From contig JAGVFW010000002.1 in the NCBI GenBank assembly GCA_020057405.1, positions 1,621 to 65,620 of the forward strand: DNA of 64,000 nt. The letters run 5' to 3'. The DNA is from an archaeon (lineage in GTDB: Archaea; Micrarchaeota; Micrarchaeia; Norongarragalinales; UBA97). The position numbers and the translations under genes are program-made. Shown piece after piece: positions 19,562 to 53,292 of the stretch (positions within the stretch are counted from its first letter, which is position 1; each line of letters begins with the position of its first letter). The notes beneath the pieces are model-generated. The model had not been told where the DNA came from. It made no database searches and saw nothing but the letters and a program-made list of their open reading frames with translations.

Positions 19562-19659
19562 CTACTGCATATCCGTAGCGGTGTGGAGTTTAAATTACTT
19601 TGGTAGGGTTTGCATCAACTAGCAGTTTATTGCGAACATTAGTGGGAGTTGAGTGGCTT

Positions 19660-21114
19660 TTAGTGTACTGGCGTAAAGTAAAAAATTTGAAATTCTTTTT
19701 TACCATTTTTATCTATTAAGTTAATGGAGCATGTCTGATTAGAATTCGGATTTAAATTTCGTGGGGCAAATTTGCTCTGAAATTCAAACTGGTTTTCCTC
19801 TGTAAAGTTGTAGTTAAAAATAGGGGGATATTCATCGAGTGGAAAGCTGTAACCATTGTTTCCAGAATTATCGGTGCAATTTCCTGAAATCCATTCTTCG
19901 TCATTAGTGCTAGTATTGCTAATGATGTATAGATCTATAGGGTGCGGCGGAACATCAACGCAGCTATGGACTCCAGTTAGATTATAGTCAAATTTCAATG
20001 CTGGCGTGCCATTGTCGAGAAATAAATCTGAGAAACCACAATTTTTTAATCCGTATTCGGGATATGTGCTAATTGATATGCAGTAATTCTGAATAATTTT
20101 TGCGACTCCGCTTTCATTTACTTGGGTGCATCTTTGTTGTAGGGTTTGTTGTCTCCAGTCTGGTTCGGGTTTGTTCCAGTTGTTGGGCTCAGTTTCGTGA
20201 TAGGTGAAGTTAAGTGCTAGTTTTGTTTCACTATTTTCGTTCACTTCGAGGGCGCAAGCGTATTGGGTCGTGTTCCATTCTTGGTTTCCTTGGGTTGGGC
20301 GTAAGAGCCAGTATGTGAATGAGCGTGAGGCGTCAAGGGGGCAGTTGTCTTTTTCGAAGTGGGCGTAGGTCGTCGTTGTTTCTGGCGAGGTGCATTTGAC
20401 GGTTATGTTGGCGTTTGCTTGGTGGTCGGAGTAGATTTTGAAGCTTTGCCAGTGAGAGTTGGCAATTAGTCGGGCGTTTTCGAATGGTGCAGTGAACTGG
20501 GTTCGGCATATGTTTCCGATGCAATTCCACGGCCAGATTGAACTCCGGTCGTTTAAGTCAATCTGACTCCAGTTGATATTAATCGCAAAGTTTGTCTGCG
20601 GGTCAGAAGTTAAGTGTGAATAGCTAGAATCTAAGTCGCGTAGGTAGAGGCAGTAGCCGTTCTGAAAGAAGGCCAGTCCAGTTTCGTTTGCTAGGCCGTG
20701 GCATTGCGTTTCCGTTAAGTCGGCAATCTCGCTTCGGTCAACTAGATAGAAGTTTACTCCGTTGGGGTTGCTGTCGGGGCCAACTGTGAGGCCACAGTTA
20801 GTGGGATTGCGTTCAGGGCCTTGCTGCTCGCTTGTACCGTAACCGAGGCCTATATCGTTAGGTCCTCCGTTGCCACCCGAACCTGGGGTTGGAGTTGGCG
20901 TGACTTCTGGCGTTGGAGATGGTGTAGGTGACGGCGTGGCTGTAGGTTCGGGTGTGGGAGTTGGCGTGAGTGTGGTGTTTGATGAGCTGCCGTCAGTGTC
21001 GTTAAAGCCGCCGCCAAAGGTGTGTATGGTTTTGGAAACTTCTTCTATGCAGCCAGCAAAAATTAGTGCAAAAGATAGCGCAACTGCGCAAAATGCCAAA
21101 ACACTCAGTTTCAT
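19660..21114 (-). CDS. secreted Cys-rich protein with an N-terminal lipobox-like signal and a Pro/Thr-rich linker
   Basis: 'MKLSVLAFCAVALSFALIFAGCIEE' looks like a signal peptide with an [LI]-[AF]-A-G-C lipobox. It is followed by 'TPTPTPEPTATPSPTPSPTPEVTPTPTPGSGGNGG'. About 20 Cys in the C-terminal domain. Very low GC. Confidence 0.6.
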   Translation of the reverse strand: MKLSVLAFCAVALSFALIFAGCIEEVSKTIHTFGGGFNDTDGSSSNTTLTPTPTPEPTATPSPTPSPTPEVTPTPTPGSGGNGGPNDIGLGYGTSEQQGPERNPTNCGLTVGPDSNPNGVNFYLVDRSEIADLTETQCHGLANETGLAFFQNGYCLYLRDLDSSYSHLTSDPQTNFAININWSQIDLNDRSSIWPWNCIGNICRTQFTAPFENARLIANSHWQSFKIYSDHQANANITVKCTSPETTTTYAHFEKDNCPLDASRSFTYWLLRPTQGNQEWNTTQYACALEVNENSETKLALNFTYHETEPNNWNKPEPDWRQQTLQQRCTQVNESGVAKIIQNYCISISTYPEYGLKNCGFSDLFLDNGTPALKFDYNLTGVHSCVDVPPHPIDLYIISNTSTNDEEWISGNCTDNSGNNGYSFPLDEYPPIFNYNFTEENQFEFQSKFAPRNLNPNSNQTCSINLIDKNGKKEFQIFYFTPVH

Positions 21115-29025: not shown

Positions 29026-29138
29026 GCTTCATTATGTGGTAGGCAGAACCGATTTAAAATCCCGCAGAGCGGCCCATCTCAAGAAGCTTATATTTGCGGC
29101 GCACCATAATACCTTTCAAACACGATTTTTGGTGTGTG

Positions 29139-30383
29139 ATGCCGGTTATGTACCACAAACGAGAAGACTGCAGGGGCTGCCACAGCACCGGCGTAACTCC
29201 CTTTTTGGATTTGGGAGCCATGCCGTTAGCCGGAGGTTTCCTCACATCCGACCAAGTCGCTGGCGAACGCAAATATCCGCTTGTGCTCTACTACTGCAAA
29301 ACCTGTTCGCTCGTGCAGGTCCTTGACGTCGTCGACGCAGACACGCTCTTCAAGAATTACTTCTACCTCTCGTCAGTCACAAAGACGCTCTCAAGCCACT
29401 TTGCGCAATACGCTGGCGACGTGCACGAACGCTTCCTGACGGAGAAAAACGCCCTTGCAGTTGAGTTCGGCTGCAATGACGGCGTCCTCCTCATGCCTCT
29501 CAAGGAGCTAGGCGTTCGCACAGTCGGTGTCGAGCCGTCCAAAAACGTTTCTGAAATCGCGCGGGCAAAAGGCCTTGACATAATCAACGACTACTTCACC
29601 CCGAAAGTCGCAGGCGAAATTGCCCAAAAGCACGGCCACGCGGACGCAATCCTCGCCAACAACGTTTTTGCCCACATCGACGACCTTGACGCAGTCCTGA
29701 TGGGCGTGACTGACCTGCTAAAGCCCGACGGAGTGTTCGTCTTCGAGGTCCACTACCTGCCAAACCTGCTTGACGGCCTGCAGTACGACTTCTTTTACCA
29801 CGAGCACCTCTGCTACTACTCGCTTCACTCCCTCTCAGTCCTCCTCGGCCGATTCGGCTTGGCCATCTTCGACGCTACGCCAATGGCAATCCACTCGGGT
29901 TCAATCCGCGTGATGGCCTGCCGCAAGGAAAGCGCCAGGCCTGACGAGCCTGCGGTCAAGCAGCTCATGGCTCTTGAGGAATCAAAGGGTCTGGACAAAC
30001 TCGAGACTTACACTGAATTCGCCGACCGCGTCGCCGCGCATCGGACCGAGTTGCGCACGCTTTTGCAAAGTTTCAAGTCAAAAGGCAAGCGCATTGCCGG
30101 CTACGGCGCCTCCGGCCGCGCCAACACGCTCCTAAACTACTGCCAGATAGGCACCGAGACAATCGACTACATCGTCGACGACTCGCCATTGCGCCAGGGC
30201 CACCTCACGCCGGGCACGCACATTCCAGTCAAGCCGGCCTCCGAACTCTCGTCCAACCCTCCGGACGCAATCCTCGTCCTCGCCTGGAGCTACCTTGCAG
30301 AAATCATGGCCCGCCAAAAGGATTTCGCAAAGGCGGGTGGGACTTTCCTCGTGCCGTTTCCAGAACCGGGTGTAGTGAAATGA
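29139..30383 (+). CDS. NDP-hexose C-methyltransferase-like: N-terminal putative Zn-binding domain, class I SAM methyltransferase domain, and C-terminal C-methyltransferase domain (TylCIII/Coq-type)
   Basis: 'CRGCHSTGVTPFLDLGAMPLAGGFL' N-terminal Cys cluster, 'AVEFGCNDGVLL' SAM motif I, and a C-terminal domain of about 100 aa. Paralog of the protein encoded at 37843-39063. The start is taken at ATG 29139. Confidence 0.7.
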   Translation: MPVMYHKREDCRGCHSTGVTPFLDLGAMPLAGGFLTSDQVAGERKYPLVLYYCKTCSLVQVLDVVDADTLFKNYFYLSSVTKTLSSHFAQYAGDVHERFLTEKNALAVEFGCNDGVLLMPLKELGVRTVGVEPSKNVSEIARAKGLDIINDYFTPKVAGEIAQKHGHADAILANNVFAHIDDLDAVLMGVTDLLKPDGVFVFEVHYLPNLLDGLQYDFFYHEHLCYYSLHSLSVLLGRFGLAIFDATPMAIHSGSIRVMACRKESARPDEPAVKQLMALEESKGLDKLETYTEFADRVAAHRTELRTLLQSFKSKGKRIAGYGASGRANTLLNYCQIGTETIDYIVDDSPLRQGHLTPGTHIPVKPASELSSNPPDAILVLAWSYLAEIMARQKDFAKAGGTFLVPFPEPGVVK

Positions 30384-31456: not shown

Positions 31457-32538
31457 ACAAACCGGAGGGCGGCAAATTGCGCGTCAACTACGTTCTCGGC
31501 TCGCCAGTGCCGCCAAAGTCTGGCTACGGCAAGTACGCCCTAACAGTGCTTGACGAGCTGACGCACCTCAAAGGCCTTGGCGTCCGCGACATCCGCGCGC
31601 ATTTCCCCCTAAACTTTCCATTCCGAAACATGCTTCTTGACTTTTCAACAACTCCAGTAAAGACGCTTCTGCATTCGCGGGGTGCGATTACCCACGCAAG
31701 CTCCCAAGGCTTGGCTTTCCTAGGCTTGCTTGGAGTGCGGCCGTTTGTCGTCACTGCCTACGACGCCATTCCCTTCGCGCTAAAGGAGGAACGAAAGTCT
31801 CCGGCCAAGTCAGGTCTTCTTGCCATGATGAGGCAGGGCCTGCGTGGCGCCGACGCGATAATCACGATTTCACACTTCAGCAAGCGCGAGCTCGCAAAGC
31901 ACGCCGGTCTTGACGAACGCCGCATCCACATAGCTTACCCCGGCGTTGACCACGCAGTTTTCAAGCCACTGGCGACGGCAAAGCCCGACCTGCGCAAGGT
32001 GCTTTACGTCGGTTCCGAGCAGCCGCGAAAGAATGTTGGCGTCCTTTTGGAGGCGTTTGCAAAAGCACGCAAGAAACTGCCGGGGCTAAAGCTGCTAAAA
32101 GTCGGTTCCCCCCAGTGGCGTGGCGGCCGCGAGGCGTTTTTGGCCAAGGCGCGTGCGCTTGGCGTTGCGGATGCAATCACTTTTGTCGAAGGCCCAACCG
32201 AAGCGGAGCTTGCAGCAATCTACCGCTCTTGTGGCGTGCTCGTTTTCCCGTCGACTTACGAGGGTTTCGGCCTTCCTCCACTTGAGGCAATGGCCTGCGG
32301 CCTGCCCGTCGTGTGCAGCAATGCCGCGTCGTTGCCTGAAGTCGTCGGAAGCGCGGCAATCTCACTAAAGCCCAACGATGTCGACGGCTTTGCCAAAGGC
32401 ATTGTCAGCGTCCTCTCTAAACCCGCAGTCCGCAAGCGGCTAAAGGCCAAGGGCTTCGCGCAGGCGAAGAAGTTTTCGTGGCGCAAAGCTGCGCTTGACA
32501 CTCTTAAAGTCTACGAGTCGCTTGCGCCGAAAAACTAG
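31453..32538 (+). CDS. GT4 glycosyltransferase
   Basis: 'EGFGLPPLEAMACGLPVVCSNAASLPEVVG'. ATGA overlap with the upstream GT4. Confidence 0.85.
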   Translation: MNKPEGGKLRVNYVLGSPVPPKSGYGKYALTVLDELTHLKGLGVRDIRAHFPLNFPFRNMLLDFSTTPVKTLLHSRGAITHASSQGLAFLGLLGVRPFVVTAYDAIPFALKEERKSPAKSGLLAMMRQGLRGADAIITISHFSKRELAKHAGLDERRIHIAYPGVDHAVFKPLATAKPDLRKVLYVGSEQPRKNVGVLLEAFAKARKKLPGLKLLKVGSPQWRGGREAFLAKARALGVADAITFVEGPTEAELAAIYRSCGVLVFPSTYEGFGLPPLEAMACGLPVVCSNAASLPEVVGSAAISLKPNDVDGFAKGIVSVLSKPAVRKRLKAKGFAQAKKFSWRKAALDTLKVYESLAPKN

Positions 32539-33518
32539 ACCCATTTCGTGGCCTTAAGCAGGGCCAAAAGTTCACTATCGCTTAGCATGTGCGTGTTGTT
32601 TGAAGCGTATTCACGGATTTCATTTGCATTTCCCTTGTAGGCACTGCCTTCCTTGTGCGGGGGGATGACGAACTCTTCCTTTTGCTCAACAGCGCGGTAC
32701 ATTTCCTCCTCGCTGACAAGCACTTCGTGAATCTTCTCGCCCGGCCTGATGCCCACCATCTTGGTCGGATAGCCGGCCTTCCCGGTAACAGCCTTGCCCA
32801 TCACTTCAGCAAGTTGCGTGATGCGGCAGGCGCTCATCTTCTTGACGAAAATCTCGCCGCCCTTGCCCTCTTCCATTGCCTTGAAGACAAGCTTGATGGC
32901 GTCAGGGAGCGGCAGGAGAAAGCGCGTCATGCGAGCGTCGGTGATGGGCAGGGGCTTTTTCTCGTCGAGTAACTTCTTGAAGAACGGAATCACGCTTCCG
33001 CGGCTGCCTACGACGTTGCCGTAGCGCACGCACATGAACCGCGTCTTCCAGTGCGGAGAGTTCATGCTGATGAACACTTTTTCCTGCATGGCCTTTGACA
33101 TTCCCATGGCATTGACTGGCTTGACTGCCTTGTCTGTGCTCACGCCCACCACGCGGTCGACGCCAGCCGCGATTGCCGCCTTTGCAACATTATGCGCGCC
33201 CAAGATGTTAGTCTTGACTGCCTCAAGCGGGTGGCTCTCGCAGCTTGGAACGTGCTTTAGTGCAGCAGCGTGGAAGACGACGTCAACGCCTGCCATCGCC
33301 TCGCTAACGCGTTCGAAGTCGCGCACGTCGCCGATGACATACTCTAGTCCAGCGTTGCCGTCAAACTCCTGCGCCATGCGGTATTGCTTGTCCTCGTCGC
33401 GGCTAAAGATGACGATTGACTCCGGGGAAAAGGGCGCGAGCTGGCCCACAATCTGGTGGCCGAAGCTGCCGGTGCCCCCTGTGACCATGATGCGCTTTCC
33501 CTTGAGAAAAGATGCCAT
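32535..33518 (-). CDS. UDP-N-acetylglucosamine 4,6-dehydratase-like (CapD/PseB/FlaA1 family, Polysacc_synt_2)
   Basis: 'IMVTGGTGSFGHQIVGQL' and 'IFSRDEDKQYRMAQEF' are hallmarks of PseB/CapD short dehydratases. Confidence 0.8.
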   Translation of the reverse strand: MASFLKGKRIMVTGGTGSFGHQIVGQLAPFSPESIVIFSRDEDKQYRMAQEFDGNAGLEYVIGDVRDFERVSEAMAGVDVVFHAAALKHVPSCESHPLEAVKTNILGAHNVAKAAIAAGVDRVVGVSTDKAVKPVNAMGMSKAMQEKVFISMNSPHWKTRFMCVRYGNVVGSRGSVIPFFKKLLDEKKPLPITDARMTRFLLPLPDAIKLVFKAMEEGKGGEIFVKKMSACRITQLAEVMGKAVTGKAGYPTKMVGIRPGEKIHEVLVSEEEMYRAVEQKEEFVIPPHKEGSAYKGNANEIREYASNNTHMLSDSELLALLKATKWV

Positions 33519-33525
33519 AACAAAT

Positions 33526-34527
33526 TCAACTCCGTTTCTGCTTAAAGAGTTTGCCCTTGATGGTGCGCACGCCGTAAGCGGGCAAAAGCCACTTCTCCAG
33601 TTCGGCTACGGGAACTTTTCGCCCCGCCCCCAGTTTCCGCCGCCGTGAAATTATCCACGGCAGCATCAAAAACGCGTCAATCCTTGCCTTCACGCGCGCA
33701 ACGTTGGCGGTAGCAAGCCACCAAACGCTCATTGGGATTTCGAAAATGATGTAGTAAGCCAACATTGGCACAAGCAACTTGAGCGGAAACTCCGAGAGTG
33801 CAAAGAGCAGGCGGTTTCTGTGGCCCAAGTAAGTCGCGCGATAGCTAGTCTTGCCGTAAGACACTGAACCCGCGTGAAACGCCCGCACTTGGGGCACGAG
33901 CATGCACTTCCAACCGGCCGCGCGCGCACGCCAGGCGAGGTCGATGTCTTCCAAGTAAGCGCCGAACGCTTCCTCAAAATAGCCAATCTCGTCAAGCATC
34001 TGGCGTCGATAGAGCGTCGCCCCGCCGTAGCCGCCGAAAATTTCTACCGGCTTCTTGCCAAACTGTCCGCGGTTCTCCTCGCCACCGCCGACGTTAGCGC
34101 CGTAGCCGCTGCGGTCAACTGAAACGCCGGCTGCGTCAATTACGCTGGGTTCGCTTGAGCGGACAAGGAGGGGCACGGCCATTCCGACGCGGCTGTCCTT
34201 CTCGGCAGCCGCAACCATTTCAGAAATGACTTTGGGTTCAAGCGCCACGTCGTTAGTGACTGAAATGACGTACTTGCCTTTCGCCGCCCGCAGCCCGATG
34301 TTCATGCCGGCTGCAAAGCCTAAGTTAGTGGGATTGCGGATGACTTTCGTTTGCGGAAAGTTTTTCTTGACGTACGCGAGACTGTCGTCGGTGCTCGCGT
34401 TGTCGACAAGGAGGACTTGGAGCGGCCTGTAAGTCTGCTTGCCAAGGGCCGGCAGGCTTTTTTCAAGAAGTTTTCTGCCGTTCCAATTGAGTACAACGGC
34501 AGTTACTTCGGGGTGCTTGGGTTTCAT
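33526..34527 (-). CDS. GT2 glycosyltransferase
   Basis: 'VTAVVLNWNGRKLLEKSLPALGKQTYRPLQVLLVDNASTDDS'. Confidence 0.85.
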   Translation of the reverse strand: MKPKHPEVTAVVLNWNGRKLLEKSLPALGKQTYRPLQVLLVDNASTDDSLAYVKKNFPQTKVIRNPTNLGFAAGMNIGLRAAKGKYVISVTNDVALEPKVISEMVAAAEKDSRVGMAVPLLVRSSEPSVIDAAGVSVDRSGYGANVGGGEENRGQFGKKPVEIFGGYGGATLYRRQMLDEIGYFEEAFGAYLEDIDLAWRARAAGWKCMLVPQVRAFHAGSVSYGKTSYRATYLGHRNRLLFALSEFPLKLLVPMLAYYIIFEIPMSVWWLATANVARVKARIDAFLMLPWIISRRRKLGAGRKVPVAELEKWLLPAYGVRTIKGKLFKQKRS

Positions 34528-34556
34528 TTCCTTTCACCACACCGGGCTCCGCGGGC

Positions 34557-35690
34557 TCACTGGCCTATCGAGGGTGTTGAATCAGAAATAGTATCGGATG
34601 CAGAAGCCGGTTGGGCTTGCGCCATCGGTTGAATTGCGTTTTGTGCTGCCGGCGGGTCGATTGCCTCGACCTTCAAGATAATTCCGCCCTTCTTTGCCGG
34701 GTCGTGGGGAACGTAAACCGCGCTTGCGTCGGTGTTCCACCTGCGGTAGACGTAGCAGCGCTTGCAGAAGGAGTCGTCCTTGAAGTCTTTTTCGCGGAAT
34801 GGCTCGAGGTTCTTCCACACTTGCTTGGCGTCGCTCTCAAGGAGGTTGCCGTAGAACTTGTTGGGGTGGTGGCAGCACGGGGCCGCGTCGCCAGTCCAGT
34901 TGACGAAGAGGATGCCGGTGTTCATGTAGGGGCAGATGTCGCGCTGCTTTGAGAGCCAGTTGCGCCAGCTGTGCTTTCGGCTGTAGAAGACCGTCTCGAC
35001 GGGCACGCCGTACTTGGCTTCAAATGCCGGGAGCGCGTCGAGGAACGTTTGCGTCTCTTCGGGCGACAGGCTCGGCACTTTATGGCCGTGCAAGTCGTAG
35101 ATGGGTTCGAGGTTGATGCCGTTGATGCCCGCTTGCTTTGCAATCTTTAGTATGCCCTCGAATTGCTTGAAGTTAAGCGATGAGAGGACGACGCTGAAAA
35201 ACACTTTCTTGTCAGCCTTTGCGGCGCATATGCGCAGCACGCCCTCAAGGAGGGGGCCGAAGTGGGAGTTGCGCCGGATTGCCTCGAATTCCTCACTAGC
35301 GGGAAAGTCGAATGAGATGACAATGTTATGCACCTTGCTCGCCATTATCCTGCCAATCGTCTTTTCGTCAAGGAACGTGCCATTTGTAGTGAATGTGACT
35401 TCGAGGCCCATGTCTGCGGCGTAGTTGGCCATGTCAAAGAGCTGCGGGTGAAGCGTCGGCTCGCCCCAGCCGGTCAAGTTGATTGCCTTTAGCTTGTTGA
35501 ACTTGCTTAGAATGGTCTTGAAGTCATCTAGGGGCATGCGGCCGAGGCCCTTTGAGAAGCTCTTTCGCGGGCACATGACGCAGTCGAGGTTGCAAATGTT
35601 GGTCGGCTCAAGGTGGAGGATGATGGGCTCCTCTAGGGGCTCGTAAAGCGCGTACTTCGCCTGTTCCACTGGATTGAGTTGATAGGCCAT
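34557..35690 (-). CDS. radical SAM enzyme with a C-terminal SPASM/twitch Cys-rich domain
   Basis: 'LEPTNICNLDCVMCPRKSF' contains CxxxCxxC. C-terminal auxiliary-cluster cysteines lie in '...DAAPCCHHPNKFYGNLL...SFCKRCYVY'. Embedded among glycosyltransferase genes. Confidence 0.8.
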   Translation of the reverse strand: MAYQLNPVEQAKYALYEPLEEPIILHLEPTNICNLDCVMCPRKSFSKGLGRMPLDDFKTILSKFNKLKAINLTGWGEPTLHPQLFDMANYAADMGLEVTFTTNGTFLDEKTIGRIMASKVHNIVISFDFPASEEFEAIRRNSHFGPLLEGVLRICAAKADKKVFFSVVLSSLNFKQFEGILKIAKQAGINGINLEPIYDLHGHKVPSLSPEETQTFLDALPAFEAKYGVPVETVFYSRKHSWRNWLSKQRDICPYMNTGILFVNWTGDAAPCCHHPNKFYGNLLESDAKQVWKNLEPFREKDFKDDSFCKRCYVYRRWNTDASAVYVPHDPAKKGGIILKVEAIDPPAAQNAIQPMAQAQPASASDTISDSTPSIGQ

Positions 35691-35749
35691 TGCAAGAAGT
35701 ATTTGCGTTAATGGTCTTTTTTAAGCCCTGCATTTCGGCACTGCTGCTT

Positions 35750-36262
35750 TTAATCAAGGAAAGGAATCCGCACGGACTTTAGGCGCGGCAAGAGCCGCAA
35801 AGCGAGCCGGAATCCATAGGCGAAAATGAAGAGGAGCACTAAGTCGTTTAGGAAATCAAGGTAGATGTCAATCGAAGAGTGCATTACTCCCGTGAACCAG
35901 TAGCCGACGTTGTGCAGGACAACTGCGGCAAGAAAGAGCGGCATCAGCTGCTCGAGGTCAAGTTTTGTCGCGTCGCGGACGAAAAGAAACAGGCACAGCG
36001 TGATGAGGCCGTGCGCGAGGCCGTGAAAGACGATATCAAAAGCCGCATACGGTGAGATTGATGCGATTGCGAGCACGCGGCTAACGCCGTCAGCTGCAAA
36101 CACCGCGTTGAAGAACTTCATGTAGCCTTCAGTCGCGCCAACGCCAATCAACACATAGAAAATCGCGACTTTCGCCCAAATCGCAAGCTGGATGACGAGG
36201 TAGAAGCGCGTTAGGCGGTTAAACTGCTCGCCGCTCATGCCGAAGTCTTTAGCTGAAAACAA
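35750..36262 (-). CDS. small 4-TM membrane protein, possibly a GtrA-like lipid-linked sugar translocation factor
   Basis: 170 aa with four hydrophobic helices. The position beside GT2/RfbF genes is reminiscent of GtrA-family proteins. Weak inference. Confidence 0.35.
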   Translation of the reverse strand: MFSAKDFGMSGEQFNRLTRFYLVIQLAIWAKVAIFYVLIGVGATEGYMKFFNAVFAADGVSRVLAIASISPYAAFDIVFHGLAHGLITLCLFLFVRDATKLDLEQLMPLFLAAVVLHNVGYWFTGVMHSSIDIYLDFLNDLVLLFIFAYGFRLALRLLPRLKSVRIPFLD

Positions 36263-36294
36263 GTCAATTCACCTAAAACAAATTTGACTGGGCG

Positions 36295-37062
36295 CTACCA
36301 CTTGACCCAGGGCGCATGCCCGCTTGCAAACTCGGTGTTTAGCAGGTCTAGCTCGCGCACGGTGTCGACGCAGCGCCAGTAGCCCGAGTGGGGAAATGCC
36401 ATGAGCTGGCCGTCGCGCGCAATCTTTTCAAGCGGCTCGCGCTCTAGGATAGTCGCATCGCCGCCGATGTAGCGAAGGACGGATTTCTTCATCGCAAAGT
36501 AACCGCCATTGATTTTGCCCTCGCCTTCAACTGGCTTTTCTGAAAACGACTTGACGCGGCTACCCTCAAGCTTGAGGCTGCCGAACTTTGAGGGCGGGTT
36601 CACAGCAGTGACCGTCGCAATCTTGCCGTGCTGCTTGTGGAACTTTAGGAGTGCGCCAAGGTCAACGTCAGCCACGCCGTCTCCGTAAGTGAGGAAAAAG
36701 TCTTCCTGCAAGTAAGGCGCCGCGCGCTTGAGCCGTCCGCCGGTCATGGTGTTTAAGCCCGTGTCGACGAGCTTGACGTTCCAGTCGTCAACGGCCTTGC
36801 CCGCAAGCAGTTCGACCTTGTTTTTCTTGACGTCGACTTCGATGTCGTTGTTGATGTAAGCGTAGTTGAGGAAGTATTCCTTGATTGACTCGCCCTTGTA
36901 GCCAAGGAGGATGAGGAAATCACGCACGCCGTAGTGGCTGAACGTCTTCATGATGTGCCACAGGATGGGCTTGCCGCCGACCTCGACCATGGGCTTTGGC
37001 TTGATGATGGTCTCTTCCTTGAGACGAGTTCCAAGACCGCCGGCCAGAATTACCGCTTGCAT
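36295..37062 (-). CDS. rfbF: glucose-1-phosphate cytidylyltransferase
   Basis: 'MQAVILAGGLGTRLKEETIIKPKPMVEVGGKPILWHIMKTFSHYGVRDFLILLGYKGESIKEYF' is the diagnostic RfbF/DdhA signature. Confidence 0.85.
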   Translation of the reverse strand: MQAVILAGGLGTRLKEETIIKPKPMVEVGGKPILWHIMKTFSHYGVRDFLILLGYKGESIKEYFLNYAYINNDIEVDVKKNKVELLAGKAVDDWNVKLVDTGLNTMTGGRLKRAAPYLQEDFFLTYGDGVADVDLGALLKFHKQHGKIATVTAVNPPSKFGSLKLEGSRVKSFSEKPVEGEGKINGGYFAMKKSVLRYIGGDATILEREPLEKIARDGQLMAFPHSGYWRCVDTVRELDLLNTEFASGHAPWVKW

Positions 37063-37149
37063 GATATGATATAGTCGGCCGAAATTAATAAACCGGCAGG
37101 AAAGCCCAGTGGCTCCTTGGTTGCATGGCTGGGATTAAGGTCTGCTGGC

Positions 37150-37488
37150 TCAAGGCGTGATTTTGAGCACTGCGCCTACTTGCTGCTTGAGTTGCGGCAA
37201 GTCCTTCTCTACGGTAGCCCAGACGCTTTCGATGTCCACGCCGAGATAGTTGTGGATGAGCTTGTCGCGCATGCCCGCAATGTCCTTCCAAGGCACTTGC
37301 GCGTGCTTTTTCTTGAGTTCGGGTGAGACTTGCTTGCAGGCCTCGCCAATGATTTCGATTTGCCTGATGACCGCGTCCTGGATGAGCGAATTTCCCTTGA
37401 ATTCTTTTTCGGAAATGTCGGCCGTATAGTCTTCAATCTTGCCTATGGAGTCAAGGATGTGCTTCAGGTATACCGAATTGGCTTTCAA
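37150..37488 (-). CDS. hepT: HepT-like toxin (DUF86 nucleotidyltransferase substrate-binding protein)
   Basis: 'RDKLIHNY' matches the Rx4HxY HepT catalytic motif. 112 aa, 4-nt overlap with the upstream MNT gene. Confidence 0.85.
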   Translation of the reverse strand: MKANSVYLKHILDSIGKIEDYTADISEKEFKGNSLIQDAVIRQIEIIGEACKQVSPELKKKHAQVPWKDIAGMRDKLIHNYLGVDIESVWATVEKDLPQLKQQVGAVLKITP

Positions 37489-37775
37489 GCGTAGAGCACC
37501 TTGACTTCATCAGTAATTCTCTTTGCAATGTAGGGGCTGATGGACTTGTCTGTCAGAAGGTCTATTTTCTTGCCAGTTTTCTGAGCCAAGTCGTTCTCTA
37601 TGCGCACGAGCTCAAGCAGGCTTTTGGGTGCATCAAATTTGACGATGAGGTCAATGTCGCTATCCTTCCTTTCATCACCGCGCGCATGCGAGCCGAACAA
37701 CGAAATTTTTCGCGCGCCGTAACTAGATAGCACGGACACTATTTGCTTTGTCAGCAATTTTTTCATTTGCGTCAA
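37485..37775 (-). CDS. mnt: MNT-type minimal nucleotidyltransferase antitoxin
   Basis: 'LFGSHARGDERKDSDIDL' matches the GSx9-10DxD nucleotidyltransferase motif. 96 aa, upstream of and overlapping hepT. Confidence 0.85.
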   Translation of the reverse strand: MTQMKKLLTKQIVSVLSSYGARKISLFGSHARGDERKDSDIDLIVKFDAPKSLLELVRIENDLAQKTGKKIDLLTDKSISPYIAKRITDEVKVLYA

Positions 37776-37842
37776 CCTTTAGTATAACTTAGCGGCTGAG
37801 GCTATTAAAACCAGCTTTTCCCGTAGCCAAAAGCAAAGCGCT

Positions 37843-39063
37843 TCAGGCGACAATGCGTGGTTCGGGAACCGGAATGATGAACTTCCCGCCCCCAGCGCGG
37901 TAGGTGGAGAGCTGAGTCATAATCTCGTCAGCCAAGTTCCAGGCCAAAATGAGCACGTAGTCCGGCTTTCGCGCCATAATCTCTTCAGGAGGCACGACAG
38001 GCACGTGGTTGCCTGGCGCGTAGAGCCCCTGCTTTAGCGGGCTCTTGTCGGCAATGAAGTCAATAGTCTCCTTTCCGAGGCCGCAGTAGTTTAGAAGCGT
38101 GTTCCCCTTGGCAGCAGCGCCATAAGCCGCAACAGTCTTTCCCTGCGACTTGATTTCCCGCATGAGGCCAACGAGGCCATCCTTCAGGCTGTGAACCTTG
38201 GCGGCAAAAGCGTTCATCGCCGAAATGTCTGCAAGTCCGCTTGCGCGTTCCATCTCAAGAAGCGCGTCGACCGACTGTCCCTGCCGCGCCCCACCTGCAG
38301 TCTTCTTGACAAAAAGCAAAAGCGAGCCGCCGTGCATTGTCGTGCGGCGTGCCTCGACAATCACCATGCCGTGCATGTCAAAGAGCCGCACGAGTGGCGC
38401 GACGGCAAAGTAGGACAAGTGCTCGTGGTAAGTCGTGTCAAATTCCAGCTTGCCAACCATGTCGGCAAGGTAGGGAAACTCCAAAACGAGTGTGCCGTCG
38501 TCCGCAAGGAGGGCGCCGACGCCGTTAAGCAGGCCGTGCAGGTCGGGCACGTGGGCAAAGACATTGGTGCCAATGATTGCCGCCGCCCGGCCGCGCTCGA
38601 CCGCAATCGCTTTGGCGCTCTCCTCGTTGAAGAACTCGCAAATCGTCTCAACGCCGTTCTCGACCGCAATCTTCGCGACATTCTCGGCTGGCTCAACGCC
38701 AAGCGCTTTGATGCCGGTGCCAGCGAAGTTCTTCAAAAGCGTGCCGTCGTTGCTTGCAAACTCGACTACGAGGCTGCCCTTGGGTACCATTTCGACAATT
38801 TCGGCGGCAAGCTGTACGAAGTGAGCAGAGAGAGTTTTTGAAGTTGACGAAACGTAGAGGTAATTTCTAAACATCTTCTCAGGCGGTACGACGTAGCCGA
38901 GCTGCACGAGGCCGCAGACGGGGCACAGGCACAAGTCAAGGGGGAACTCCTCTTCCTTTCCCGTTAGCTGGCTTTCGCTAAGAAAAGAGTTTGCAAGCGG
39001 GGTCGGGCCGAGCTCGAGGAATTTCTCAACCTTGTCGCTTGAGCAAATGCGGCACGTAACCAT
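37843..39063 (-). CDS. NDP-hexose C-methyltransferase-like (paralog of the protein encoded at 29139-30383)
   Basis: 'CRICSSDKVEKFLELGPTPLANSFL...CPVCGLVQLGYVVPPEKMFRNYLYVSSTSKTLSAHF' is collinear with 'CRGCHSTGVTPFLDLGAMPLAGGFL...CKTCSLVQVLDVVDADTLFKNYFYLSSVTKTLSSHF'. The start is taken at ATG 39063, preceded by AAGGA. Confidence 0.7.
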   Translation of the reverse strand: MVTCRICSSDKVEKFLELGPTPLANSFLSESQLTGKEEEFPLDLCLCPVCGLVQLGYVVPPEKMFRNYLYVSSTSKTLSAHFVQLAAEIVEMVPKGSLVVEFASNDGTLLKNFAGTGIKALGVEPAENVAKIAVENGVETICEFFNEESAKAIAVERGRAAAIIGTNVFAHVPDLHGLLNGVGALLADDGTLVLEFPYLADMVGKLEFDTTYHEHLSYFAVAPLVRLFDMHGMVIVEARRTTMHGGSLLLFVKKTAGGARQGQSVDALLEMERASGLADISAMNAFAAKVHSLKDGLVGLMREIKSQGKTVAAYGAAAKGNTLLNYCGLGKETIDFIADKSPLKQGLYAPGNHVPVVPPEEIMARKPDYVLILAWNLADEIMTQLSTYRAGGGKFIIPVPEPRIVA

Positions 39064-39070
39064 CCTTAAC

Positions 39071-40414
39071 TCAGCCCCTGCCAATTGGGAAAACTTGCGC
39101 CTTGCTATAATCCGCACCGTCAAGCAAGCGCCTGCAGTCGACGATGACCGGCGTTTTCATTAGCTTGATGAACTCATCCTGCGGGAGCTTGAACTCCGGC
39201 CACGCGGTCAAAATCATTGCAACGTCAGCGCCAGTTAGGGCCGCCTGCGGCGTCGCTGCAAACGAGAGGTTCGTTTGCGCGCCCAGTTCCCGCGCGCCAT
39301 TTGCCTGCGCTTGCGGGTCGGCTGCAACTACGGTTGCCTCTTTGGCAAGTAGCATTGGAATGATGTAGAGCGACGCCGACTCGCGCACGTCATCAGTAAA
39401 CGGCTTGAATGCCAGGCCGAGGACAGCAACTTTCTTTCCGGCCAGGGACCCGCCGCACGCTTTTTGCGCAAGTGCCACGGCCGCCTTTCGCGCCCGCGCG
39501 TTTTCCTCAAGAACCGCCTCAAGCAATGGCGCGCCAAAGCCGGCTTCCTTTGCGTAAGCCGCAAGTGCCGCAACGTCTTTGGGGAAGCACGAGCCGCCAA
39601 AACCGGCGCCTGTTCGCAAGTAAGAGGTCCAGCCTAGGGTGGGCTTGCCGTCGCTTGTGATGCGCCTGTCAAATTCGACTGACTTTAGGACTTCGATGGC
39701 ATCCACGCCCGGATGCTTCTCCGCAACGCGAGCAATCTCGTTGCTGTAGGAAATGAGCGTCGCAAACAAGCTGTTGGCGGCGTACTTGATGAGTTCCGCA
39801 GTTTCAAGCCCGTAGTGAAGCATTGGTGCTTTGAGGGGCGCGTAGATTTCTTCCGCAGTCTTGCCGCTCTTGGCGTCCAACTCGCCGATGACCACGCGGT
39901 CGGCGTTGGCAAAGTCCTCGACGGCATTTCCCTCGCGCAGGAATTCGGGCGTCATGCACAGGCCGAAGTCCTTTCCGGCCTTTTTGCCGCTAGCTTTTTC
40001 GATTGCCGGCAAGACAAGCTTGCGGGTAGTGCCGGGCAGCACCGTGCTTCGGATGATTACTAGCTTGTAGCCGGTCGTCTTTGCGATTGCCGCGCCGATT
40101 TGGCCCGAGACCGCCTCGATTTGGCTCAAGTCAATGCTGCCGTCTTGCCGCGAGGGAGTGCCGACGCACACGAGCACTGCATCGGCTGGCTCGCAGGCTG
40201 CCTTCAGGTCGGTTGTTGCAGTGAGTTTGTCTGACTTGACTGCCGCCATGAGCACTTCGGCCAGCCCCGGTTCGCTGATGTGGGGCTTGCCTTCGGCAGT
40301 CATCTTGACAACTGCTTCCCGTGAGTCGACACAAACGACTTCGTGGCCAAGTTTTGCCAAGCACGCGCCAGTGACAGTGCCGACATAACCCGTGCCGATG
40401 ACTGCAATCTTCAT
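39071..40414 (-). CDS. nucleotide-sugar dehydrogenase (UDP-glucose/GDP-mannose dehydrogenase family; possibly UDP-ManNAc/UDP-GlcNAc 6-dehydrogenase)
   Basis: 'MKIAVIGTGYVGTVTGACLAKLGHEV', 'CVGTP' and 'GFGGSCFPKD' catalytic-Cys region. The start is taken at 40414. Confidence 0.8.
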   Translation of the reverse strand: MKIAVIGTGYVGTVTGACLAKLGHEVVCVDSREAVVKMTAEGKPHISEPGLAEVLMAAVKSDKLTATTDLKAACEPADAVLVCVGTPSRQDGSIDLSQIEAVSGQIGAAIAKTTGYKLVIIRSTVLPGTTRKLVLPAIEKASGKKAGKDFGLCMTPEFLREGNAVEDFANADRVVIGELDAKSGKTAEEIYAPLKAPMLHYGLETAELIKYAANSLFATLISYSNEIARVAEKHPGVDAIEVLKSVEFDRRITSDGKPTLGWTSYLRTGAGFGGSCFPKDVAALAAYAKEAGFGAPLLEAVLEENARARKAAVALAQKACGGSLAGKKVAVLGLAFKPFTDDVRESASLYIIPMLLAKEATVVAADPQAQANGARELGAQTNLSFAATPQAALTGADVAMILTAWPEFKLPQDEFIKLMKTPVIVDCRRLLDGADYSKAQVFPIGRG

Positions 40415-40419
40415 TTTCT

Positions 40420-41469
40420 TCACTTCCACTCCGTCTTTGCCCACTCGAGCATGCGGGCAAGGCCGGCTTTCAGTACAATCTTTGGTTCGTAGCCGAGTTT
40501 GCGGACTTTTGCCAAGTTTGGCGCGCGGCGCTTGGGGTTGTCGGCCAAGTAATCCGCTTCAGCACTCTTCTTGAACTCAACAGGCAGGCCGCCGGAAACT
40601 TCGGAAACTGCTTTTGCAAACTCAGCCATCGAAATTTCCTGCATGTCGTTGCCGACGTTGAACGGCTCTCCGCTGTGATCGCTTAGAAACACTCGCAAAA
40701 AGCCATCAATGGCGTCCGCAATGTAGCAGAAGCTTCGCGTGTCGGTGCCAGTGCTAAGGAGCACGAGCGGCTTTCCGTCAACCGCGTTGGCGATTAAGTC
40801 GGGCACCACCCTGCCGTCGTCCTTTCGCATGCCAGGGCCGTAGACGTTGAAGGGCCGCACAATTTTGCTCGGCACGCCGTACTGTTGGTTGAAGTAAACG
40901 CATAGCGTCTCGCCGTAGCGCTTTGACTCGTCGTAGCACGCGCGGGGCCCAGTGCAGGAGACAAAGCCGCGGTAGTCTTCTGCCGTCGGGATGTTTGCCG
41001 CGTCGGGGTCGCCGTAAATCTCGCTTGAGCTGAAGTAAAGCAGGCTCTTGACGCCGTGTTCGCGTGAGTACTCAAGCAAATGCCGTGTTCCAACGACGTT
41101 GACGTCCATAGTGTCAATCGGGTACTTGCGGTAGGTAATCGGGCTTGCGATGCCGGCAGCGTGGATGATGTAATCCGCATTTACGCCGGCAGGCAGGGGC
41201 TTTCGCACGTCGTGGCTAAGGAAAGTGAAGAAGGGCTTTCCCTTTAAGTGGTCAAGGCGGTTTGGAATGCCCCCTGCCATGTTGTCTAGTGCGACGATGT
41301 TGACTGCTACGCCAGCGTCATTTAGGGCGGCGAGCGTGTCAACCATGTAGGAGCCGAGCATGCCAACTGCACCAGTGACTAGGACGGTCTTGCCGTCTAG
41401 CTTGCGTGCCATGGGCAGGATGCTCTTTGCGATTGCTGCGCAGTCTTCGACAACGATTCGGGAAACCAT
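40420..41469 (-). CDS. NAD-dependent nucleotide-sugar epimerase/dehydratase (extended SDR)
   Basis: 'KTVLVTGAVGMLGSYMV' plus a YxxxK motif. The alternative start MARKLDGK at 41412 is more canonical. Confidence 0.8.
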   Translation of the reverse strand: MVSRIVVEDCAAIAKSILPMARKLDGKTVLVTGAVGMLGSYMVDTLAALNDAGVAVNIVALDNMAGGIPNRLDHLKGKPFFTFLSHDVRKPLPAGVNADYIIHAAGIASPITYRKYPIDTMDVNVVGTRHLLEYSREHGVKSLLYFSSSEIYGDPDAANIPTAEDYRGFVSCTGPRACYDESKRYGETLCVYFNQQYGVPSKIVRPFNVYGPGMRKDDGRVVPDLIANAVDGKPLVLLSTGTDTRSFCYIADAIDGFLRVFLSDHSGEPFNVGNDMQEISMAEFAKAVSEVSGGLPVEFKKSAEADYLADNPKRRAPNLAKVRKLGYEPKIVLKAGLARMLEWAKTEWK

Positions 41470-48260: not shown

Positions 48261-51200
48261 GTGGGTTTAGTGGTCGATACTTTAGTTCTTGCTATCTCGG
48301 TCATTCTCTTCGCAATTCCGGGCATTTTCCTCTCGGCAGCGCTATTTCGGCGAACGTCGCTTGACTGGCTTGAGAAGGGGTTACTTGGTGTAGTCTTAAG
48401 CTGCGTGGCAATGCCCGTGCTTGCCATCCTCGAGCTCGTCTTTTTCGCAATCAAGTTCAACGGCATGCTGCTTTTCGCCAACTTCCTTCTCCTGGTACTC
48501 GTCGCCATCGTCGCCTACGCTTACCAGGGAATGCCAAAGCTAGAGTTTCACCGCCCGCGCATACCATTCCTTGACGGAAAGTTTGAGTGGGAAAAGGACA
48601 AGAATCTAGTCTTCGGCGCGGTTCTGTTAATCCTGCTGCTCATTACCTTCTGGGTCAGGTTCGCACCCGCCTGGGCGGATAACTTTTTTGAGTTCGACCC
48701 TATTTTCTACAGCCACGTTACGGAAATACTGGCGAAGAACGGCGTCATCCCTGCCGAGTCAAGCGAAGTTTACTACCCGCTGACGAAAGACCTGCGTGTT
48801 TACCCTATTGTGCCCTACTTGGGGGCGCATATTTACGCGATTTACCACGCGATTGTCGGCGGCCCGTTCATCAAGTCAGACTTTCACTTAGTCATCGAGA
48901 TTTACCCGCCCCTTATGGCAATACTCACTTCATTTGCAGTCTACCTGCTCTTCCGCCGGCAGGCGAATGACTGGATTGGCCTGATAGCGGCTGGCACGCT
49001 GGCGACAATGCCGCAGCTAGTCAGCAAGTTCGGTGCAGGTGTCAACGAACTGCAGCCGTGGGGCCTCTTCAGCGCCGTTTTCGTCATCGCAGCCACCTTC
49101 CTTGCAATGTCGCAAAAGAGCTACCGCTTCGCAGTCTTGGCCGGCATCGGACTCTTCGGAGCCATGCTTGGCACGGCGCAGGGCCTCTGGCCTGCAGCAG
49201 CAATCGCCTCTTTCTTCCTGCTTCACGCGCTCGTTTCCTACCTTCGCGAGGAGTTAGATTTCCGTGCGGTCGCCATTTACGCCATCATCGCCCTTCCGGG
49301 AGTCCTCGGCGCGCTCTTGTTTAACTTCTACCGCTCGGGCCTGACGCTCGGAATTGGCAACCTGATGTCGAATGCAGGTGCGTTGTTCAAACTCGGCACA
49401 CTCCAGTACCTGCTTATCGCCGCAGTTGCAGTCGCCGTGTTCCTGCTTGCAGTTCAGCAGTTCGTCCTGCCCAGGCTAAGGCAGGTCACGCCTCACCCGA
49501 AGCCCGTCAGCGTTGCTGCAATGCTGATTGCGCTGGCAATAGTCTTCATCGCAGTCCCGGCTGTTCCCGGCATGCTCGGCGATTTTCTCAACAGTTCCGC
49601 CGGCTTTGCCCGACAGGGGAGTGCCCTGGGCATGACGATTGCAGAGGAAAACGCGACCACGCCCGGCCTGTACTTCGGCGCGTTTGGCAACATCAATCCC
49701 GATGTCCTCCTTCCTGCCGCCGCGCTTCTAATCTCCCTCTTCGCGTTCATCAAGCTCTTGATTGCCGGTAGACGGATTGCGGCTGGCGCTGTTGTATTGG
49801 GTGTGCTGCTTATCACGGCGTTCAACTCGTTTACCGACTCGATGCTTTTGTGGGTTGCCAACAACCTGTTGAGCGGCTATTCGCTTTTCACGCAGTTTGT
49901 CACCGGCAACGACTTGTTCGTCTACATGCTTGTTTCCATCATCTCGCTATTGCTTGCCATGCTCCTCGTCAGGGAAGACCCGATTCCGTCGGAGCTTCTC
50001 TACCTCGTCATCGCAATTTTCCCCGTCGCCTACATCGGCTTAAACAAGCTCAAGTTCATGCCGCACCTGGCACTTGCCCTGGCAATCGCGTTCCCGTTCG
50101 CCCTCTCTATGGGCCTCAAAATCATCCAGACGCTCTCGACCGAGCTTAAGGGCGAGAGTGGCCGCAAGATTGCTGTGAAGGCCGGCCTTGCCCTCATCGT
50201 CATCATCGGCGGTCTAGTGCTTTACGCGCAGTCAAACACGCTTGACAACTCAATGGCAGGCCTGCAGTACACCCGCATCTCGAGCGACTGGCTGTCAAGC
50301 TACGAGTGGATGCGCACGGCACCCTCGTTTGACAAGTCATTCTGCACCAACACTTACGGTTACGACTGCCGCGTGCTCTCATGGTGGGATTACGGCCACT
50401 GGACTACGTTCTTCGGCGAGCAAAAGAGCGTGCTTGACCCCGGCAACCGCTATCCTGACTTCAACCAAGGCACGGCAAGGGCTTTTGTCCAAGGCAACAT
50501 CACTGACCTGCTTTACACCGTTCGCTACCACCAGGCGACGCACATTCTTGCCGACGCGCAGCTAGTGCAGAAGTGGGGCGCACTCGTGTTCCTAAGCGGC
50601 ACGTGCGCGCACTCGCAGTACGCAACCTGTCCAGAGAAGCCCGAGATTGACTACAAGAACGGCGCCGGCAGAAGCACTTACGAGGCCGAGCACTACTTCG
50701 AGTTCCTCACGAGTTCCGGCACCTGCCCAGCGCAGTTGACCGGCGTGGCGTTACCCGCATTCAAGAGCAGCCTGACGAACGCCGTCTACTGCTTTACCGA
50801 CACGGAGTACCTGCTTTTGACTTCGCAGGGCATCGACCCGAACTTCAAGCGCAAGTACAAGATAATCGGCCGCGACACTGTCGACGCCGCGCGCCTAGAG
50901 AAGGACACGGCTTACCTCTTCGGCTACACGCAAGGCCAGTTCATCAACGTGAACCCCGACCTCACCTACGTCGGCCTGAACAACACGGTCATCGACTCGG
51001 CCTTCACGCGCCTCTTCTTCTTCGAGTACATGCCTGGAATGCAGCTTGACCACCGCTCGCCAAGCGGCGAAGTAAAGATATTCCGCATCCTACCGGAGTT
51101 CATCAGCGGCTCTACAATCGCAAGCAGCAGCAACTTAGCGTCGACGCCAAGCCCGACTCCGATACCCTCGGCAACTCCCGAGCCAACGCCGAGTGCAAAC

Positions 51201-51320
51201 GAGACTGGAACTAACCTGACCTCATCAAGCCCCACTCCTTCGGCTAGCTCGTCAGTAACGCCGAGCCCAACGCCGGCGCCTTCAACAAGCCCGACGCCCG
51301 TTCCCTCGCCCACGCCATAG
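48261..51320 (+). CDS. aglB: archaeal oligosaccharyltransferase AglB (STT3 homologue) with a C-terminal Pro/Thr/Ser-rich tail
   Basis: About 13 N-terminal TM segments. The diagnostic 'WWDYGHW' (in 'CRVLSWWDYGHWTTFFGE') sits in the C-terminal soluble domain. The final about 65 aa are 'PSPTPIPSATPEPTPS...SPTPVPSPTP'. Confidence 0.9.
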   Translation: MGLVVDTLVLAISVILFAIPGIFLSAALFRRTSLDWLEKGLLGVVLSCVAMPVLAILELVFFAIKFNGMLLFANFLLLVLVAIVAYAYQGMPKLEFHRPRIPFLDGKFEWEKDKNLVFGAVLLILLLITFWVRFAPAWADNFFEFDPIFYSHVTEILAKNGVIPAESSEVYYPLTKDLRVYPIVPYLGAHIYAIYHAIVGGPFIKSDFHLVIEIYPPLMAILTSFAVYLLFRRQANDWIGLIAAGTLATMPQLVSKFGAGVNELQPWGLFSAVFVIAATFLAMSQKSYRFAVLAGIGLFGAMLGTAQGLWPAAAIASFFLLHALVSYLREELDFRAVAIYAIIALPGVLGALLFNFYRSGLTLGIGNLMSNAGALFKLGTLQYLLIAAVAVAVFLLAVQQFVLPRLRQVTPHPKPVSVAAMLIALAIVFIAVPAVPGMLGDFLNSSAGFARQGSALGMTIAEENATTPGLYFGAFGNINPDVLLPAAALLISLFAFIKLLIAGRRIAAGAVVLGVLLITAFNSFTDSMLLWVANNLLSGYSLFTQFVTGNDLFVYMLVSIISLLLAMLLVREDPIPSELLYLVIAIFPVAYIGLNKLKFMPHLALALAIAFPFALSMGLKIIQTLSTELKGESGRKIAVKAGLALIVIIGGLVLYAQSNTLDNSMAGLQYTRISSDWLSSYEWMRTAPSFDKSFCTNTYGYDCRVLSWWDYGHWTTFFGEQKSVLDPGNRYPDFNQGTARAFVQGNITDLLYTVRYHQATHILADAQLVQKWGALVFLSGTCAHSQYATCPEKPEIDYKNGAGRSTYEAEHYFEFLTSSGTCPAQLTGVALPAFKSSLTNAVYCFTDTEYLLLTSQGIDPNFKRKYKIIGRDTVDAARLEKDTAYLFGYTQGQFINVNPDLTYVGLNNTVIDSAFTRLFFFEYMPGMQLDHRSPSGEVKIFRILPEFISGSTIASSSNLASTPSPTPIPSATPEPTPSANETGTNLTSSSPTPSASSSVTPSPTPAPSTSPTPVPSPTP

Positions 51321-51367
51321 GCTAAGCGCGGAACGTAATCTTAGCGAATCCAGCCCGCGGGCCCCGT

Positions 51368-53288: not shown

Positions 53289-53292
53289 CTAA

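Follow-up and report, generated by a model that had tools for sequence, protein, structure and literature searches.

What is a radical S-adenosylmethionine (SAM) enzyme doing among the glycosyltransferases of an uncultured micrarchaeon? The question is raised by a gene at 34557..35690 on the minus strand of a 64,000-nucleotide stretch of contig JAGVFW010000002.1 (assembly GCA_020057405.1; Micrarchaeota, Norongarragalinales), a stretch that we refer to as the window. The gene has an ATG start and encodes a protein of 377 residues that matches the Pfam families Radical_SAM and SPASM. An identical protein (P0001), from a 69.9-kb contig, is already present in public data, where the only name attached to it is the JGI name 'MoaA/NifB/PqqE/SkfB family radical SAM enzyme'. 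We lean towards the view that this protein tailors a sugar or glycan by oxidation or epimerisation, acting as a BtrN-type twitch enzyme within a cell-surface or N-glycan pathway. Judged by sequence, it probably operates in the manner of carbohydrate-acting twitch radical SAM enzymes while being the orthologue of none of them, and it appears to represent a nearly orphan lineage in an unusual context.

The Radical_SAM domain (PF04055) covers residues 28-182 with 61.5 bits against a cutoff of 29.5, and the cysteine motif of the SAM cluster, CX3CX2C, is supplied by C33-x3-C37-x2-C40 and kept in 51 of 52 homologues. Across all open reading frames (ORFs) of at least 150 residues in the window the motif occurs this once, and the gene is also the sole window ORF that matches the hidden Markov model of the family; given both facts, the motif is not there by chance. 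A GGE-type motif (G76-E77-P78) is invariant in the homologue alignment. The C-terminal domain is matched by the Pfam SPASM profile at residues 253-313 (33.3 bits, cutoff 21.5). Cysteines lie at positions 33, 37, 40, 155, 253, 272, 273, 309 and 312 and nowhere else in the protein, and C253, C272, C309 and C312, together with G267, are each kept in at least 49 of the 52 aligned homologues. C273, which neighbours the cluster ligand C272, is semi-conserved (34 of 52), and C155 is not conserved in this alignment. The resulting pattern, C253-x13-G267-x4-C272 ... C309-x2-C312, makes up the opening half of the SPASM signature. The remainder of the seven-cysteine motif that ligates the two auxiliary clusters, AuxI and AuxII (CX9-15GX4C ... 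CX2CX5CX3C ... C), is absent from the protein, which has no CX5CX3C and no cysteine beyond C312. SPASM domains carry two auxiliary clusters, and twitch domains, which are shortened SPASM domains, carry one (PMC9012708). Under that definition, and because just four auxiliary cysteines are conserved, the enzyme is by its sequence of the twitch type, with one auxiliary cluster, and is not a full SPASM protein; the Pfam profile matches despite the missing second-cluster ligands because it also covers truncated forms. A sequence-only reading of this DNA had called the protein a SPASM/twitch radical SAM enzyme, and the domain matches and the CX3CX2C motif bear out that assignment in its one-cluster twitch form, though not as a full SPASM protein. 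The predicted clusters would be a SAM-cleaving [4Fe-4S] cluster at C33/C37/C40 and an auxiliary one fully ligated by C253/C272/C309/C312.

From about residue 321 onwards (34557-34720, about 55 codons) the protein ends in a tail rich in proline, alanine, glutamine and serine that is predicted to be disordered, cannot be aligned between the two closest relatives and is missing from every other homologue. Comparison with P0121, an 83%-identical groundwater relative (loci L010/L011), indicates purifying selection, with a ratio of nonsynonymous to synonymous substitution rates (dN/dS) of 0.09 for the core (codons 1-325) and 0.27 for the tail (last ~50 residues). An AlphaFold2 (AF2) model of the protein reaches a predicted local distance difference test (pLDDT) score of 80.8 and a predicted template-modelling score (pTM) of 0.79, the tail lying below a pLDDT of 50. 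In a fold search with this model SuiB, DesII, BlsE, CteB, SkfB, anSME, BtrN, viperin and MoaA come up at similar scores, with E values down to 2e-16. Structure prediction had been suggested as a check by the sequence-only reading, and the model does match radical SAM structures; within the limits of a model, the fold confirms the radical SAM class but does not discriminate function.

BtrN is the best match in the PDB for both of our family profiles, A2 (11 sequences; E 2.6e-27) and A3 (a narrower set of 10 sequences; E 3.7e-20). It is the 2-deoxy-scyllo-inosamine dehydrogenase of the butirosin pathway, and its structure is available as 4M7S and 4M7T. The profile alignment extends over the core as well as the twitch domain. 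The two proteins have the same layout, a truncated SPASM domain after a radical SAM core, and all four auxiliary cysteines of BtrN line up with C253/C272/C309/C312. In BtrN the auxiliary cluster is ligated by four cysteines, and the enzyme performs the two-electron oxidation of a carbohydrate-like aminocyclitol (PMC9012708). The likeness is remote, amounting to 75-99 bits by profile, and we do not regard the two as orthologues: searched with the single sequence, BtrN is reached at E 0.0096, and BtrN is about 250 residues long, has a more abbreviated barrel and is without the disordered tail. BtrN also belongs to a Bacillus antibiotic pathway with butirosin-type genes, whereas the window holds no such genes and no aminoglycoside genes of other kinds. 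The single-sequence PDB search is headed by the tetraether synthase Tes/GDGT-MAS (E 1.8e-9), in an alignment limited to the core (residues 22-197), with BlsE second (E 6e-9). No curated NCBIfam cutoff is reached by the protein, nor by any of the ten homologues that we tested. The best of these models is TIGR04317 (W_rSAM_matur, a maturase of tungsten-cofactor oxidoreductases), at 122.7 bits against a cutoff of 380, and the N_Twi_rSAM model, which describes a different, N-terminal-twitch architecture, is matched at 63.4 bits against 170.

A further comparison is offered by the carbohydrate epimerases HygY, NeoN and AviX12, which act on aminoglycoside or orthosomycin intermediates and in which a cysteine that donates a hydrogen atom inverts a sugar stereocentre; we compared these by description alone. 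PMC10991966 gives Cys249 as the hydrogen-atom donor of NeoN and cites HygY, by title, as a twitch epimerase in which a dehydrogenase activity is latent. The window enzyme has an extra cysteine, C273, and by analogy one could speculate that it serves as such a donor.

The assignment to sugars rests mainly on this locus, on the contexts of two orthologues and on the top-scoring relatives. These contexts, with the top relatives that have informative flanks and a set of domain fusions, are also the basis on which we infer that the substrate is a nucleoside diphosphate (NDP)-sugar or a lipid-linked glycan. In the window the gene is the eighth of ten co-directional genes (32535-41469, minus strand), given here in the order of transcription, whose spacing, measured over 32.5-39.1 kb, ranges from -4 to 87 bp. 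At the head of the array stands a UXS/dTDP-glucose-dehydratase-like short-chain dehydrogenase/reductase (SDR; 40420-41469, Pfam Epimerase), followed by an AglM-like UDP-glucose 6-dehydrogenase (UGDH; 39071-40444) with UDPG_MGDP_dh domains and 408 bits against a cutoff of 189.8 in the NDP-sugDHase model, and by a TylC3-type NDP-sugar C-methyltransferase (37843-39123; Pfam Methyltransf_13, Methyltransf_23 and Methyltransf_14). Next come a toxin-antitoxin pair (37150-37775) consisting of HepT, a HEPN RNase (HepT-like, 103.9 bits), and an MNT nucleotidyltransferase (Polbeta/NTP_transf_2), and then rfbF (36295-37062), whose product is a glucose-1-phosphate cytidylyltransferase that makes CDP-glucose (TIGR02623, 343.8 bits against 300.25, over residues 1-255 of 255). 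An ORFan membrane protein of 170 residues (annotated as 162; 35750-36262) with about four hydrophobic segments lies directly upstream of the radical SAM gene. A GT2 glycosyltransferase (33526-34527; Pfam Glycos_transf_2, 82.2 bits; C-terminal hydrophobic segment at residues 251-269) begins 29 bp downstream, and the last gene encodes a PseB/FnlA/FlaA1-like SDR of the NDP-sugar 4,6-dehydratase type (32535-33518) with 343.8 bits for Polysacc_synt_2 and 342.5 bits in the PseB model, under its cutoff of 407.75. Neither a CDP-glucose 4,6-dehydratase that passes its model nor the pyridoxamine phosphate (PMP)-dependent 3-dehydrase E1 was found among the annotated ORFs.

The sequence-only reading had already placed the gene among sugar enzymes, and the Pfam and NCBIfam matches across the array and the surrounding island agree. 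It had also named the GT2 and rfbF correctly and had their directions reversed: on the minus strand the GT2, which it put immediately upstream, is downstream in transcription, and rfbF, which it put downstream, is upstream. Its label of GtrA-like for the membrane protein at 35750-36262 finds no support. The resemblance consists of size and some four hydrophobic segments; there is no NCBIfam match, Pfam at E<=5 returns just a chance-level ETR1_N, and among 5.8 billion proteins the only homologue is the protein itself. Compared with a partial counterpart in L010 it shows 56% amino-acid identity and saturated dS, against 83-91% identity and a dS of about 0.8 for the flanking genes. The HepT/MNT pair sits inside the glycan array, between the C-methyltransferase gene and rfbF, and a pair of HEPN and nucleotidyltransferase genes is also found just upstream of a homologue of the window GT2 in an unrelated 824-kb contig (L092, 4974-5661).

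Searched with HMMER against 1.84 billion cluster representatives, the enzyme has 27,143 relatives at E<=0.001 and just seven at E<=1e-30. Besides the protein itself, one representative exceeds 33% identity: P0002, a 224-residue fragment (64% by HMMER, 63% by BLASTP). In a scan of one genome per GTDB species, relatives are at most 30% identical, bar one partial match at 41%. The 83% relative (L010/L011) retains the order of membrane protein, radical SAM gene, GT2 and dehydratase, and in an independent glycan setting the 63%-identical orthologue has a GT4 and an FdtA-like keto-sugar isomerase for neighbours. When 80 loci of relatives from named genomes were compared, the four top-scoring ones (L012, L013, L016 and L017) each had four to five glycan genes within 5 kb. 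L012, from a proteobacterial metagenome-assembled genome (MAG), has a B12-radical SAM gene, three SDRs, an FdtA-like cupin and a GT2 that resembles the window GT2 (3e-42) and lies next to the radical SAM gene; L013 (Actinomycetota) has a GT2, the radical SAM gene, a Wzx flippase and GT4s; and in L016 and L017 (Scalindua) a nucleoside triphosphate (NTP)-transferase, a GHMP kinase and an SDR are joined by three radical SAM genes of the twitch type, a DegT aminotransferase and a B12-radical SAM gene. The metagenomic relatives P0015 and P0007 likewise lie amid GT2 and GT4 genes, DegT, WbqC and many more radical SAM genes. Over the 80 loci, which are not phylogenetically independent, the density of glycan-type genes within 4 kb is about four times that found beyond 6 kb (35/498 against 7/374; Fisher p=3e-4). 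Fusions in more distant relatives bring in sulfotransferase, class III aminotransferase, GT28, SDR, methyltransferase or B12-radical SAM domains, partners that are typical of small-molecule or glycan tailoring.

Two side observations concern these relatives. Some of the fusions are giant (P0151, 1798 residues; P0153, 1423; P0279, 1380; P0219, 734) and contain one or two radical SAM/SPASM modules together with a sulfotransferase and a methyltransferase, a TPR domain and a sulfotransferase, a class III aminotransferase, or a GT28 C-terminal domain. Elsewhere, L016 (6890-16032), L017 (58-9425) and L004 (1117-17116) contain three to six twitch/SPASM radical SAM genes along with B12-radical SAM genes. 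Their company there consists of a DegT aminotransferase, a GHMP kinase, an NTP-transferase and glycosyltransferases (GT2/GT4), and the loci resemble an uncharacterised class of sugar pathways in which radical tailoring is heavy.

If the enzyme oxidises or epimerises a sugar, a plausible course can be drawn. The 5'-deoxyadenosyl radical would take a hydrogen atom from a secondary carbinol carbon of a sugar that would be nucleotide-activated, most plausibly from CDP-glucose (rfbF lies two genes upstream), or that might already be on a dolichol-linked glycan. The substrate radical could then give an electron to the auxiliary cluster and leave a keto-sugar, as in the two-electron oxidation by BtrN, or a cysteine thiol, with C273 as the candidate donor, could quench it from the opposite face and leave an epimer, as in HygY and NeoN. 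The product would be passed to the adjacent GT2 and to other enzymes of the array. C-methyltransferases of the TylC3 type act on keto-sugars, so a keto product would suit the neighbouring C-methyltransferase. More tentatively, and with a good deal of doubt, we entertain a larger proposal: that the enzyme catalyses an unrecognised step of archaeal N-glycosylation, a radical reaction, independent of nicotinamide adenine dinucleotide (NAD), that oxidises or epimerises a sugar derived from CDP-glucose or linked to dolichol, and that it is the first representative of a broader class of glycan-tailoring twitch enzymes. The keto or epimeric centre would in that case be used by the C-methyltransferase and the GT2 to build a branched or rare sugar, and further members of the class would turn up in polysaccharide loci of bacteria and archaea, frequently several to a locus and alongside B12-radical SAM partners (L004, L012, L016/L017, L065 and L069).

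Several observations weigh against oxidation or epimerisation of a glycan sugar. When about 15 billion proteins are clustered at 50% identity, the lineage accounts for just two clusters, which leaves very few independent loci from which to read context; at 63 of the 80 loci a glycan gene could not be detected within 5 kb, and functions vary among the relatives that share 25-30% identity. For homologues of the window GT2 that are 35-45% identical to it, a radical SAM neighbour is not the general rule (0 of 4 contexts), and on this count a conserved module of GT2 and radical SAM enzyme, which the pair in L012 would fit, is not supported as a general arrangement. Sequence, moreover, cannot separate oxidation and epimerisation from decarboxylation or dehydration. 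It is here that another kind of radical sugar chemistry comes in, either hexuronate decarboxylation as by BlsE, or 1,2-diol dehydration or deamination to a deoxysugar as by AprD4 and DesII, which we consider unlikely. BlsE is cytosylglucuronate decarboxylase and DesII is TDP-4-amino-4,6-dideoxyglucose deaminase; both are radical SAM enzymes that act on nucleoside- or nucleotide-linked sugars, both are among the top fold matches, and BlsE, as noted, is second in the single-sequence search. Yet their alignments are limited to the radical SAM core, DesII is larger (about 490 residues), and the NCBIfam model of BlsE gives 49.9 bits against a cutoff of 400, whereas the family profile favours BtrN with the auxiliary domain included. 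The UGDH of the same array makes UDP-glucuronic acid, a point for decarboxylation, but a UXS-like NAD-dependent decarboxylase already adjoins it. For dehydration or deamination it counts that rfbF could supply a deoxysugar route, one that does without the classical E1/E3 enzymes, and that neither E1 nor a CDP-glucose 4,6-dehydratase passing its model is among the annotated ORFs.

A second doubt attaches to the sugar itself, for the peptide maturases SkfB, CteB, SuiB, PqqE and anSME score similarly to BtrN in the fold and profile searches. The enzyme could be a peptide or protein maturase, akin to SkfB, anSME or a sactisynthase, whose substrate is encoded elsewhere and is either a surface glycoprotein or a cryptic ribosomally synthesised and post-translationally modified peptide (RiPP); its place in the glycan island would then reflect co-regulation with the maturation of surface proteins. 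We judge this very improbable. Large proteins of secreted type are encoded at 13.5-21 kb, and PMC6231123 offers in SkfB a precedent for a twitch domain serving a RiPP pathway. Against this, the intergenic gaps, at 7-87 bp, are too short to contain an unannotated precursor gene, as the sequence-only reading had anticipated in seeing no RiPP precursor or suitable short ORF nearby. There is also no N-terminal extension of the size of a RiPP recognition element (RRE), the CX3CX2C motif beginning at residue 33, and no transporter, peptidase, sulfatase or mycofactocin gene (MftA, MftB, MftD, MftE) adjoins the radical SAM gene. Full SPASM maturases (anSME, PqqE, MftC, SuiB, CteB) belong to the same superfamily and have the first SPASM half in common with the window enzyme, which differs in being without CX5CX3C and the seventh cysteine of the second auxiliary cluster. 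The maturase models stay far under their cutoffs (MftC 81 against 265, StsB 34 against 625, GeoRSP 47 against 400), PqqE is absent among the matches listed, and similarity to anSME, PqqE and MftC is weak and sub-threshold, so that the strong homology of anSME/PqqE type that would have told against the sequence-only reading is not there. A mycofactocin-like pair of MftC and MftF was considered as well, the best NCBIfam match of the GT2 being MftF (68.8 bits), and was rejected: both scores are far under their cutoffs, none of MftA, MftB, MftD or MftE is nearby, and the second auxiliary cluster is lacking. A role outside glycans, with the location incidental, is in our estimate quite improbable; the enzyme would then be a cofactor or metalloenzyme maturase, or a lipid enzyme acting on a dolichol or archaeol carrier. 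Tes, the top PDB match, and HpnH act on lipids, and TIGR04317 is the best NCBIfam match, but TIGR04317 falls as far short of its cutoff as stated above, the Tes/GDGT-MAS model NF045702 gives 38.8 bits against 450, the architecture of about 500 residues that goes with it is not seen here, and among the annotated window ORFs there is no AOR-family, FmdE or lipid-synthesis gene. Most relatives at 25-30% identity are without glycan neighbours, and for some archaeal relatives the partner is FmdE, not a sugar gene: in L014, L015 and L021 (MAGs of Methanoregula, Bathyarchaeia and Hadesarchaea) a radical SAM subgroup of about 280 residues is followed by a gene of about 188 residues, for which we infer an FmdE identity from pooled counts, with 4 FmdE matches among 63 pooled neighbour ORFs of 18 non-glycan loci (best E 1.5e-42). 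The neighbour-joining tree, too, is star-like and gives the window protein a long branch, standing apart, whose nearest neighbours are these FmdE-linked archaeal proteins; it was uninformative as to a placement in a glycan-associated clade, which we dropped. Set against a non-glycan role are the tight packing of the gene between glycan genes, the retention of that order in L010/L011 and the different glycan context of the 63% orthologue, and tailoring of a sugar or glycan by oxidation or epimerisation is the reading that we prefer.

The glycan island around the array is extensive, with sugar-pathway genes running from about 1.5 kb to 52.6 kb of the window (more than 45 kb in all). It includes seven GT2 and three GT4 genes, two PMT_2 proteins, an ArnT-like glycosyltransferase, RmlA-like, RmlB and RmlD-like genes, a GMD-like SDR, a second nucleotide-sugar dehydrogenase and a DegT aminotransferase; an uncharacterised glycosyltransferase at 12389-13489 is known as such by its JGI name alone. 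At 48261..51320, on the plus strand, lies a gene for an oligosaccharyltransferase of the AglB/STT3 type (1019 residues), which matches Pfam STT3 with 38.5 bits against 24.5 and carries the WWDxG motif as WWDYG at residue 708. By these sequence features it is an AglB, and we call it divergent because its best NCBIfam match, archaeo_STT3, falls short of the cutoff (92 bits against 450). An AglH-like Glycos_transf_4 gene adjoins it in convergent orientation (48261-52570 for the two), and directly after the island come a NucS endonuclease and a KaiC/RadA-like ATPase (52440-54669, plus strand). Because of the AglB with its WWDYG, the AglH-like glycosyltransferase, NucS and the KaiC-type gene, we infer that this is an archaeal N-glycosylation or surface-glycan locus. 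It resembles the archaeal Agl pathways in its AglB, its AglH-like Glycos_transf_4, its AglM-like UGDH, its many GT2 and GT4 genes and its NDP-sugar enzymes. We know of no radical SAM enzyme among the Agl enzymes described, and the library that we searched contained nothing that ties one to an archaeal N-glycan pathway or to polysaccharide loci. Scans of the window for tRNAs and Rfam families found nothing.

Other features of the island bear on what the glycan may look like. Besides the C-methyltransferase of the array, a second TylC3-type enzyme (Methyltransf_13/14) is encoded at 29094-30383 on the plus strand, and the presence of two suggests, at the level of sequence, a C-methyl-branched sugar in what is apparently an archaeal surface glycan. 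The trio of an rfbF-like NTP-transferase, an SDR and a C-methyltransferase is repeated in L093. From about 13500 to 21100 the minus strand encodes a 960-residue LamG/ConA-like protein, a 1080-residue subtilase (S8) and a 484-residue protein without a significant Pfam match; this block has a GC content of 0.41-0.52, as against about 0.57, and a strong positive GC skew. Its products may be secreted surface proteins or the block may have been acquired horizontally, and they are candidate targets of glycosylation.

What we present is a well-supported annotation together with a testable hypothesis as to function. Since many thousands of SPASM/twitch proteins are uncharacterised, one more is not in itself surprising. 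To our knowledge, radical SAM chemistry on sugars is known almost solely from antibiotic pathways, those of BtrN, HygY, NeoN, BlsE, DesII and AprD4. If the enzyme acts in an AglB-dependent pathway, radical tailoring of sugars would also shape the cell-surface glycans of archaea, and this would help to account for unusual sugars in uncultured anaerobes. It would, if true, also offer glyco-engineering an oxygen-sensitive, NAD-independent path to keto or epimeric sugars. Beyond this one micrarchaeon, the recurring clusters in which several twitch radical SAM enzymes stand with B12-radical SAM enzymes and glycosyltransferases suggest that the family may include a larger, unexplored class of enzymes.

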